The notes below the pieces were generated by a model. That model searched no databases. It saw only the letters and a program-made list of their open reading frames with translations, and was not told the origin of the DNA. From Escherichia phage WPEC5, in the sequence record PV654397.1: a stretch of DNA of 64,000 nucleotides; one strand, written 5' to 3'. The stretch's first letter is position 1; every line of letters begins with the position of its first letter. A program made the position numbers and the translations under genes. Positions 1,385-2,439 of the stretch are shown here, one piece after another.

Positions 1385-1918
1385 TTATTTCCTCATGTAT
1401 TTTATTACATCTTCAAATAGTTTAGTTTTCAGTGCATCATCATTACCAGGTAGAAAAGTACTGAAGCTATTAAAATCTTCATTCTTGGCAAACTCACGCA
1501 TCTGTGTGGAACTGTAGCGACTTATATTTCGGTCAATTCCAGCTTGAACTGCCTTGATTGAACAAAAATTATATAACTTCCCATTGTACGTGTCAAGTGT
1601 TTTTTGGAATGGTTCAAGTCTATCTGAACCACATATGAAAAGAACATCTAAGTACTTTCCATCCAGTTCTCTCATTATATCAAACAGATTATCTTCTGTA
1701 TAGATATTTTCTTGTACAGATGGGTAAAATCCTTCTGTATAGTACATTTTCAGTTCAGGAGGTAATGGGTTTTTGATGGCATCAGTACTGGTACTAAGGA
1801 ATATTTTCAAATCAGCATTGTACTGTTCTTGTAGTGCTTGTGCTTTTTCAAACACTAAGCCATGTCCGTGATGTATTGGGTTACATCTCATGAATGATAG
1901 TATACATGTTTCTTTCAT
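1385..1918 (-). CDS. Nucleotidyltransferase, NMN adenylyltransferase-like
   Basis: N-terminal NPIHHGH (HxGH nucleotidyltransferase signature) and C-terminal SSTQMR (SSTxxR-like) motif. Confidence 0.6.
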   Translation of the reverse strand: MKETCILSFMRCNPIHHGHGLVFEKAQALQEQYNADLKIFLSTSTDAIKNPLPPELKMYYTEGFYPSVQENIYTEDNLFDIMRELDGKYLDVLFICGSDRLEPFQKTLDTYNGKLYNFCSIKAVQAGIDRNISRYSSTQMREFAKNEDFNSFSTFLPGNDDALKTKLFEDVIKYMRK

Positions 1919-2439
1919 ATGTTCTTCATCACCTGACCAATAGATTTAAGATGGTTGATTTTAGCTGGAGTCAAATACTTATCCAGTACTATTAAACAAC
2001 TAGGGAATGGAGCACTGTCAGTCTTTTTATCTGGTTCTTCAGGGATACCGAACTTTAAGCGACCTTTTATAAAACAAATACAATCACAAACTTTCGCAGC
2101 ATAATCCTGAAAGGCTATAGTATCAGTTCTTGATGGTACGAGAATCAGTACTGTAGCACCTTTGTTATATGCATCAACTGCCTTAGATAACCACGTTTTC
2201 AAATCACTGTACGGTGGGTTGAGCCACACGATATTGTTTCCCCAGTCCTGTTCAAGTGAATTGTCTTCTGGTGTAAAGAACTTATCACACAATGCAGTTT
2301 CTTTGACACACGCTGCATCTAGTGTAAATTCCCAGAGTTCATCCAAATCTTCAAAGAAATCCTTTGGAGTAGTCCAGTTATCTTTTCCAGTACTGAAATG
2401 TACTGATTGTTTTTTCTTCGAAGCATCCTTCTTCGACAT
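1915..2439 (-). CDS. DNA N6-adenine methyltransferase, phage Dam family
   Basis: WTTPKDFF...LDAAC...WLNPPYSD matches the phage N6-adenine MTase architecture (NPPY catalytic motif). Confidence 0.85.
   Translation of the reverse strand: MSKKDASKKKQSVHFSTGKDNWTTPKDFFEDLDELWEFTLDAACVKETALCDKFFTPEDNSLEQDWGNNIVWLNPPYSDLKTWLSKAVDAYNKGATVLILVPSRTDTIAFQDYAAKVCDCICFIKGRLKFGIPEEPDKKTDSAPFPSCLIVLDKYLTPAKINHLKSIGQVMKNI

Follow-up and report, generated by a model that had tools for sequence, protein, structure and literature searches.

A Dam-family methyltransferase and a phage 'cytitidyltransferase' encoded side by side in Escherichia phage WPEC5: probably not a nicotinamide adenine dinucleotide salvage system

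Escherichia phage WPEC5 (PV654397.1) carries, at positions 1385–2439 of the 64,000-nt stretch analysed here (the window), exactly two minus-strand open reading frames (ORFs), both starting with ATG. An initial annotation had read them as a nicotinamide mononucleotide (NMN) adenylyltransferase-like gene, suggestive of phage-encoded salvage of nicotinamide adenine dinucleotide (NAD+), next to a Dam-family adenine methyltransferase gene. We find that the pair encodes a PF05869 adenine methylase, which probably acts on DNA, and a free-standing member of the phage 'cytitidyltransferase' family, that it probably does not serve NAD+ salvage, and that the two genes probably lie together by synteny. 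Both ORFs are present as had been described, and the three motifs that had been pointed out, HxGH and SSTxxR in the transferase and NPPY in the methyltransferase, can be read directly from the sequence (Table 1). Chance is excluded for both ORFs because of their family matches (PF05869, phrog_111, phrog_3041 and 3252 representative homologues; see below). The source phage is an Asteriusvirus (RaK2-like) jumbo coliphage; the first 6 kb of the window are 99.3% identical to Escherichia phage Ecwhy_1 and 85–98% identical to other Asteriusvirus jumbo phages (PBECO4, 121Q, phAPEC6).

The transferase belongs to a very widespread phage family. It matched phrog_3041 'cytidyltransferase' over residues 2–176 (E=7.7e-52), and a profile built from its close relatives retrieved 3252 representatives at E<=0.001 from a library of 1.84 billion clustered proteins. 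Among the best 150 of these representatives, the domain forms the N-terminus of a 300–1200 aa protein in about two thirds. On Pfam PF01467 CTP_transf_like the window protein scored 13.6 bits, against a cut-off of 21; the S-RIM8 homologue scored 27.5 bits, and 54 of 74 long homologues matched this model at E<=0.001. The family is the 'cytitidyltransferase' of T4-like cyanomyoviruses, where it is universal, and it was found in 537 GenBank phage records, 366 of them from Synechococcus phages. Identity to the window transferase is 85–98% within Asteriusvirus, 34–39% for examples from Eneladusvirus and Mimasvirus (pEa_SNUABM_47, GAP32) and ~29–35% in cyanophages. The window transferase retains 18/18 invariant columns of a 60-sequence alignment. 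R11 and P14 precede the HHGH stretch, and R11, G18 and H19 are invariant in the 60 homologues; S136 and R141 are invariant in alignments of both 42 and 60 homologues, and D46, N50, K57, D99, R100, N112 and R130 are invariant polar residues specific to the family. The WPEC5 protein is a direct member of this group (phrog_3041 and part of phrog_395; S-PM2, P-SSM2, S-RIM8; PBECO4 gp147, GAP32_069, CBB_73), but it is a stand-alone 177-aa domain, whereas in most relatives the domain is N-terminal in long proteins or encoded beside DUF6267 or Zeta_toxin-type kinase genes. In the literature the family's function is described as 'unclear', and one homologue has been detected among the virion proteins of a cyanophage (PMC9146016); the genome papers examined on RaK2 and Asteriusvirus phages make no mention of nicotinamide or cytidylyltransferase.

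Comparison with curated models did not place the transferase among the NMN adenylyltransferases (NMNATs). It fell far below the thresholds of the NadD models (NF000840, 16.9 bits against a cut-off of 150; TIGR00482, 16.3 bits against 112.45) and gave no match to the archaeal NMNAT model TIGR01527, whereas genuine phage NMNAT-Nudix (NatV) proteins score 52–63 bits on TIGR01527 and 240–277 bits on the NadM-Nudix model NF003786. Four other family members reached at best E=1e-4 on any NMNAT model. We used hhalign to compare the family with NadM-type NMNATs, represented by three genuine phage NMNAT-Nudix proteins and the M. jannaschii NMNAT, the latter sequence being validated solely by its retrieval of 376 phage NMNAT records. 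Residues 9–67 alone aligned (probability 91%), corresponding to the ATP-binding part with GRxxPxHxGH and the NP(L/F) loop, and the similarity ended ahead of a D...W segment common to the four NadM-type sequences. A 42-sequence profile searched against PDB sequences matched phosphopantetheine adenylyltransferase (PPAT) best and over the full length (E=8.5e-6), followed by nicotinic acid mononucleotide (NaMN) adenylyltransferase (NaMNAT; E=5.4e-5), and its matches to NadM-type NMNATs were confined to residues 5–71; a direct search of the transferase sequence against PDB chains found nothing at E<=10. The HHGH stretch aligned to GRFxPFHxGH of NadM-type NMNATs, and the SSTQMR stretch to ISSSxVR of PPAT.

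A structure model from the 60-sequence alignment (pLDDT 94.5), which supersedes an earlier AlphaFold2 model from 11 close homologues (pLDDT 75, Foldseek TM ~0.5), predicts a Rossmann-like alpha/beta fold with an N-terminal (H/T)xGH and an NMNAT-like three-dimensional arrangement. Its Foldseek TM-scores with PPATs (0.64–0.67) were slightly above those with N(a)MNATs (0.59–0.63). HxGH and SxTxxR are present, yet they are common to the whole HIGH superfamily including PPAT. Of the 'NMN-adenylyltransferase-like' description, the resemblance in fold and motifs holds, and the family assignment is mistaken or at best lacks support. Relative to the NadM-type NMNATs (MJ0541, 1f9a; Francisella NadM-Nudix, 2qjt; NatV of KVP40- and RB43-like phages), the window transferase is without a Nudix domain, a NAMPT neighbour or a partner in the genome. 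We conclude that it represents a separate family of the HIGH superfamily, NMNAT/PPAT-like in its fold and ATP-binding half, with its own invariant polar residues, and about equally distant from NMN adenylyltransferases and PPAT.

The initial annotation had proposed salvage as relevant where hosts deplete NAD+ as a defence, and had raised the question of a NadV/NAMPT-like partner elsewhere in the genome. When human NAMPT and three phage NadV/Namat proteins served as tblastn queries, neither the window nor the complete genome of Escherichia virus TH47 (352,450 bp), an Asteriusvirus collinear with the window at 86–97% identity, yielded a homologue (best E=0.1, noise). This search has power, since the human NAMPT query retrieves 2020 other phage records in the phage collection. 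Canonical NatV queries found nothing in TH47 at E<=0.01, in what is an insensitive test, and of the transferase queries a cyanophage 'cytidyltransferase' alone found the window transferase's gene there. No NAMPT-like ORF was present within 6 kb either side of 80 distant IMG/VR homologues, and no Nudix or NadR-type (AAA_28) kinase domain was fused in the 74 long homologues; three annotated contexts were likewise without NAD-related neighbours or fusions.

The chemistry of the defence also bears on the proposal. NADase defences release nicotinamide and ADP-ribose, not NMN, so that an NMNAT by itself is unable to restore NAD+ from what they release. Two phage NAD+ reconstitution pathways, NARP1 and NARP2, were reportedly described by Osterman et al. 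in 2024 (cited in PMC12801897), NARP2 being made up of Nampt and Nmnat. The sole likeness of WPEC5 to NARP2 is that one component would be a HIGH-fold adenylyltransferase; the defining partner Nampt was not found in the window or TH47, and the window transferase cannot be recognised as an Nmnat. As an account of the transferase, phage salvage of NAD+ in the face of depletion lacks support, and in our reading the protein does not provide the NMNAT step of a pathway by which the phage reconstitutes NAD+.

It is nevertheless conceivable that the transferase is a genuine NMN/NaMN adenylyltransferase that raises NAD+ or nicotinic acid adenine dinucleotide from host-supplied mononucleotides, buffering NAD+ in the course of infection or against NAD+-depleting defences. 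We regard this as unlikely. R11, P14, H16, G18 and H19 fall in the GRFxPFHxGH pattern of NadM-type NMNATs, followed by NP(L/F), and the SxTxxR signature is in place. Automatic IMG names of homologues are mostly 'nicotinic acid mononucleotide adenylyltransferase', and a 32%-identical cyanophage homologue has been labelled NMNAT, as a prediction only (PMC12801897). The transferase also matches phrog_395 ('cytidyltransferase'), a cluster that holds both canonical NMNAT-Nudix proteins (RB43-/KVP40-like, E=1e-70 to 1e-93) and cyanophage members of the transferase family (S-RIM8 gp062, E=4e-127). Because the cluster is mixed, its label is uninformative on substrate, though it does place the two families close to each other within the phage protein space, and membership is weakened as proof of NMNAT identity. 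Annotation based on PHROGs here conceals true phage NMNATs and obscures the distinction between the two families.

Several points weigh against assigning the transferase a role outside NAD+ metabolism. Host-supplied NMN or NaMN could sustain an NMNAT or NaMNAT even where the phage encodes no NAMPT; the absence of NAMPT rests on tblastn of the window and the complete genome of one close relative; PHROGs unites the canonical NMNAT-Nudix proteins and the cyanophage family in a single remote-homology cluster; and the case for another acceptor is drawn from negative evidence. Set against an NMNAT are the failure of the curated models, on which real phage NMNATs score far higher, the loss of similarity past residue 67, the better, full-length alignment of PPAT, the absence of NAMPT, Namat and canonical NMNAT hits in TH47, the lack of NAD-related genes around or within homologues, and the NADase products, which an NMNAT alone could not use. 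We therefore favour membership in a separate phage family, and the transferase more likely activates some phosphorylated metabolite other than NMN or NaMN.

The description of the neighbouring gene as a Dam-family NPPY adenine methyltransferase was borne out. Its product matched Pfam PF05869 'Dam' well above threshold (E=2.3e-32; 112.5 bits against a gathering cut-off of 28.1) over residues 17–161, equivalent to model positions 7–153 of 169, and NPPY falls inside this match; N74-P-P-Y77 corresponds to the (D/N)PPY motif IV. It also matched phrog_111 'DNA methyltransferase' (E=9e-57) and narrowly missed the NCBIfam equivalog TIGR01712 for phage N-6-adenine methyltransferases (92.6 bits against a cut-off of 97.05, residues 12–139). 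The protein is 100% identical to one of Escherichia phage EC.P1, and among the 2198 phage records that hold a homologue are those of Stx-converting, T1-like, Staphylococcus, Lactococcus and Gordonia phages. A direct sequence search against PDB chains gave a chance match only and no related solved structure. With the small phage Dam enzymes of PF05869/TIGR01712 (Stx/VT-2, HP1 and T1-like phages, Staphylococcus phage 88, lactococcal phages) the window methyltransferase shares NPPY, a small single domain and 30–49% identity; it differs in scoring just below the TIGR01712 cut-off, and the identity is too low to transfer GATC specificity. The non-specific adenine methyltransferases Hia5/Hin1523, 281-aa Dam/DpnM-like enzymes with DPPY and FxGxG (PMC3299994), were ruled out as kin, as they belong to a different family.

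N6-adenine methylation of DNA is the most likely activity of this enzyme as judged from its sequence and relatives. PF05869 is among the Pfam families of the REBASE gold-standard, experimentally characterised DNA methyltransferases (PMC7248222), and the VT-2 and HP1 phage enzymes are described as Dam-like, acting on GATC (PMC7556043). RaK2 DNA is cut solely by methylation-insensitive enzymes (PMC3622015) and so behaves as methylated. The enzyme would use S-adenosylmethionine and its NPPY site to methylate adenine N6 in phage DNA, likely for protection from restriction or for marking the DNA.

A different substrate has been suggested for exactly this orthologue group, and this counts against the assignment to DNA. 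Iyer et al. 2021 draw attention to AMM43637.1, a small DAM that stands nearest to PCIF1-like enzymes, and propose that it may methylate RNA (PMC7824862). AMM43637.1 is CBB_72 of Pectobacterium phage CBB, an orthologue of the window methyltransferase encoded directly upstream of the CBB_73 'cytitidyltransferase'. The enzyme would then methylate adenines in RNA and not DNA, with a role in the RNA repair or regulation context of the same gene block; in relatives, genes for RNA ligase 1 and polynucleotide kinase/phosphatase lie 5–7 kb downstream in the same orientation. Around 20 unrelated small genes separate the methylase from these RNA-repair genes, however, and the characterised DNA methyltransferases within PF05869, the labelling of homologues as DNA methyltransferases across the 2198 phage records and the behaviour of RaK2 DNA all argue against RNA. 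We think an RNA substrate quite unlikely and retain DNA as the probable one. The two RNA-repair genes (tRNA repair) are in the gene block of the pair, 5–9 kb downstream of it, in all relatives examined, at positions that lie beyond the window start (1–470 of the PBECO4 locus, gp129; 10034–12932 in SHEFM2K; 5143–7936 in CBB).

The recognition sequence of the methylase cannot be deduced from its sequence, because relatives that may have been characterised are only 30–49% identical and the motif-assignment tool Nanomotif transfers a motif only from 80% identity and 80% coverage upwards. The enrichment of AGTACT, to which the initial annotation had tentatively linked the enzyme, is real. The window holds 260 copies (e.g. 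at 99, 273, 1020 and 1351) where base composition predicts 21, together with 609 GTAC sites (201 expected) and 59 copies of the 8-mer palindrome CAGTACTG (0.6 expected). TH47, with its 352 kb, has 917 copies of AGTACT where 119 are expected and 203 copies of CAGTACTG where 3.6 are expected. AGTACT occurs in all three reading frames and is ~2-fold denser in non-coding DNA. Its excess is about 9–13-fold in all five RaK2-like loci examined that carry the gene pair (PBECO4, GAP32, PHA46, Erwinia, Klebsiella); for the RaK2-like jumbo phages examined it is put at 8–12-fold, and that of CAGTACTG at 56–94-fold; no AGTACT enrichment was found in the Paride and cyanophage loci, where no methylase lies beside the transferase. 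Intergenic AGTACT copies sit within sigma-70-like promoters, with AAAAGTACTTGCAA forming the -35 position, AGTACTGTATAAT an extended -10, or both.

Could the methyltransferase target be (C)AGTACT(G), so that methylation would protect or regulate these over-represented, promoter-embedded sites? The counts in the window and TH47, the excess in all five pair-carrying loci as opposed to the Paride and cyanophage loci, the placement at the -35 flank and right before the extended -10, and the adenines in the motif are consistent with this. The co-occurrence is confined to a single lineage, however, and so counts as one observation. The target of a methylase is normally not expected to be over-represented, and self-protection does not predict over-representation of sites. 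Characterised Stx and HP1-type relatives are described as Dam-like, acting on GATC (PMC7556043), though ~30% identity bars transfer of specificity, and the motif could also be used by a second methyltransferase (C5) of the genome, or perhaps by further DNA-binding proteins. We consider AGTACT a very unlikely target.

The compositional signals of AGTACT and GCGC are findings separate from the gene pair. About 25 intergenic regions at ~43500–63000 of the window have near-identical AGTACT-bearing promoters, for example upstream of the minus-strand gene starts at 54099, 57921, 59203, 50359 and 48681. Behind each of them come 'TTTACATC' and a GC-rich hairpin (GGGGA...TCCCC), ahead of the ribosome-binding site. 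Positions 28001–32000 contain zero AGTACT, with 10–14 per 4 kb in neighbouring stretches, and the longest gap between copies is 8520 bp. GCGC is wholly absent from the window (~50 expected), from TH47 (329 expected) and from the five RaK2-like loci. Also absent from the window are GGATCC, CTGCAG, TCCGGA, CGGCCG, CCATGG and GCATGC, and GATC, GGCC and CCGG occur at 0.36–0.51 of expectation. For GATC, the classical Dam site, this is a ~2-fold depletion (144 in the window against 201–249 expected; 0.51 of expectation genome-wide in TH47).

Whether the two genes form a functional unit was assessed from their neighbourhoods. The order methylase then transferase, with an overlap or a gap of <=24 nt, is kept in six RaK2-like genomes (PBECO4, Salmonella phage PHA46, Klebsiella phage RCIP0023, Cronobacter phage GAP32, Erwinia phage pEa_SNUABM_47 and Pectobacterium phage CBB), across which transferase identity drops to 34–39%. 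The flanking genes are conserved in RaK2-like genomes as well (PHROG top matches; GAP32, CBB), so the adjacency is lineage synteny. No methylase was found beside the transferase in Pseudomonas phage Paride or the cyanophages examined, and none of the 80 distant IMG/VR loci (0/80) had a Dam-like gene within 6 kb of the transferase. Functional coupling is therefore unsupported by adjacency, the pair being kept only where its flanks are kept. We take the arrangement as conserved synteny within one phage lineage, reflecting co-expression at most and offering no proof of a common pathway. A combined scheme, in which the Dam-like enzyme methylates (C)AGTACT(G) as a genome-wide epigenetic mark and the coupled transferase supplies or recycles a nucleotide cofactor for the same process instead of serving NAD+ salvage, deserves very little credence; if true, AGTACT methylation would tune the phage's own promoters or distinguish self DNA.

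The locus itself is tightly packed. The methyltransferase stop and transferase start overlap in ATGA, as expected for translational coupling of the two genes, and only 3 nt separate the transferase stop from the next gene start; the overlap and this gap mark an operon-like block. The minus strand carries 143 of the 146 crude gene calls in the window. A promoter candidate lies just upstream of the methyltransferase start, within the last codons of the preceding gene (Table 1). It is a consensus match only, since sigma-70 consensus matches in the first 4 kb (22) are not above the shuffled expectation (17.9). A perfect sigma-70 consensus (TTGACA-17 nt-TATAAT, 12/12) is also present in the interior of the transferase gene, at 1568–1596 on the minus strand, pointing the same way as the genes. 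Elsewhere in the lineage, the SHEFM2K locus at 35389–45527, collinear with ~17–27 kb of the window, holds tandem paralogous small genes, with five consecutive copies of phrog_9317; phrog_15629, phrog_13866 and phrog_12674 are likewise repeated.

Table 1. Features of the gene pair and its upstream flank, numbered from the first nucleotide of the window
Feature	Position	Strand	Basis
PF05869 N6-adenine methyltransferase gene, 174 aa	1915..2439	-	ORF, TGA stop, Pfam/PHROG matches
HIGH-superfamily nucleotidyltransferase gene, 177 aa, phage 'cytitidyltransferase' family (phrog_3041)	1385..1918	-	ORF, PHROG match
ATGA overlap of methyltransferase stop (TGA) and transferase start (ATG)	1915..1918	-	direct sequence reading
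Methyltransferase catalytic motif IV, N74-P-P-Y77 (AAC CCA CCG TAC)	2209..2220	-	direct reading
Transferase H16-H-G-H19, (H/T)xGH nucleotide-binding signature (CAT CAC GGA CAT)	1862..1873	-	direct reading
Transferase S136-S-T-Q-M-R141, SxTxxR phosphate-binding signature (AGT TCC ACA CAG ATG CGT)	1496..1513	-	direct reading
Sigma-70-like promoter candidate, TTGATG-18 nt-TATAAT, AGTACT in spacer	2455..2484	-	consensus scan, 10/12 matches

The pair is ordinary and already annotated, both genes falling within existing Pfam and PHROG families. Relatives usually carry the labels 'cytidyltransferase' or 'putative cytitidyltransferase' and 'DNA methyltransferase' or 'DNA N-6-adenine-methyltransferase'. 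Mislabels also occur in GenBank (relatives' records MH791411, PP777464, KM507819 and PQ471515), where the transferase appears as 'ribonucleotide reductase A' in several records and as 'phosphopantetheine adenylyltransferase' in one, and the methylase as 'type I restriction-modification system methyltransferase subunit' in one.

Outside the RaK2-like lineage, the company kept by the transferase family is different. Among the 74 long homologues, the Pfam domains fused to it were DUF5824 (16), Zeta_toxin/AAA_33 kinase (5) and a few singletons. Three independent marine phage contexts place the transferase right after a DUF6267 gene, with a lysozyme/peptidase M15 gene and a 730–906 aa Zeta_toxin/AAA_33 protein near, and DUF6267 is its neighbour in S-RIM8 as well; this marine arrangement of DUF6267, transferase and kinase looks like a conserved module. 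On the marine contigs the DUF6267 gene always precedes the transferase homologue with a 4-nt overlap (loci L105, 3751–8989; L109, 2760–8591; L112, 2838–8309; L007, 2854–6632). tblastn for DUF6267 and a 754-aa Zeta-type kinase protein gave nothing at E<=0.01 in the Asteriusvirus genome, again an insensitive test.

By analogy with characterised small-molecule members of the HIGH fold, the transferase would bind a nucleoside triphosphate via R11/H16/H19 and S136/R141 and would then move the nucleoside monophosphate to the phosphate of a small acceptor, releasing pyrophosphate. That this acceptor is phosphopantetheine, making the protein a PPAT-like enzyme of coenzyme A (CoA) synthesis, is hardly credible: bacterial CoaD/PPATs (8xsv, 4nah, 1b6t) resemble it in size (~160 aa), give the best full-length profile alignment and the highest TM-scores, share TxGH/HxGH, K-N-P-(L/M) and an ISSTxxR-like motif (aligned as KNP(L/M), GSDR..F with RGLR..DFE, and SSTxxR with ISSSxVR) and lend their name to one GenBank record, but identity is 13–20% at E of only ~1e-5, the CoaD model TIGR01510 gave no match at E<=0.1, D46, N50, K57, D99-R100, N112 and R130 mark a separate family, no further gene of the CoA pathway stood out in the contexts examined, and there is no obvious reason for such an enzyme to be nearly universal in cyanomyoviruses. 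The separate phage family, probably acting on another phosphorylated metabolite, is the reading we retain.

As a pair the two genes have little importance, since both already bear annotations in dozens of genomes deposited for Asteriusvirus, Mimasvirus and Eneladusvirus. For the transferase family, the chain of reasoning from NMNAT to NAD+ salvage against NAD+-depleting defence should not be propagated; the NMNAT reading has already found its way into at least one paper and into some automatic annotation. The target of the methylase, if identified, would bear on its relation to the AGTACT signal. The residual interest lies in the acceptor substrate of a very large phage-specific family of HIGH nucleotidyltransferases, with thousands of members, which is universal in T4-like cyanophages, has been detected in a virion and in many cases is fused to Zeta-type kinases or encoded beside them.

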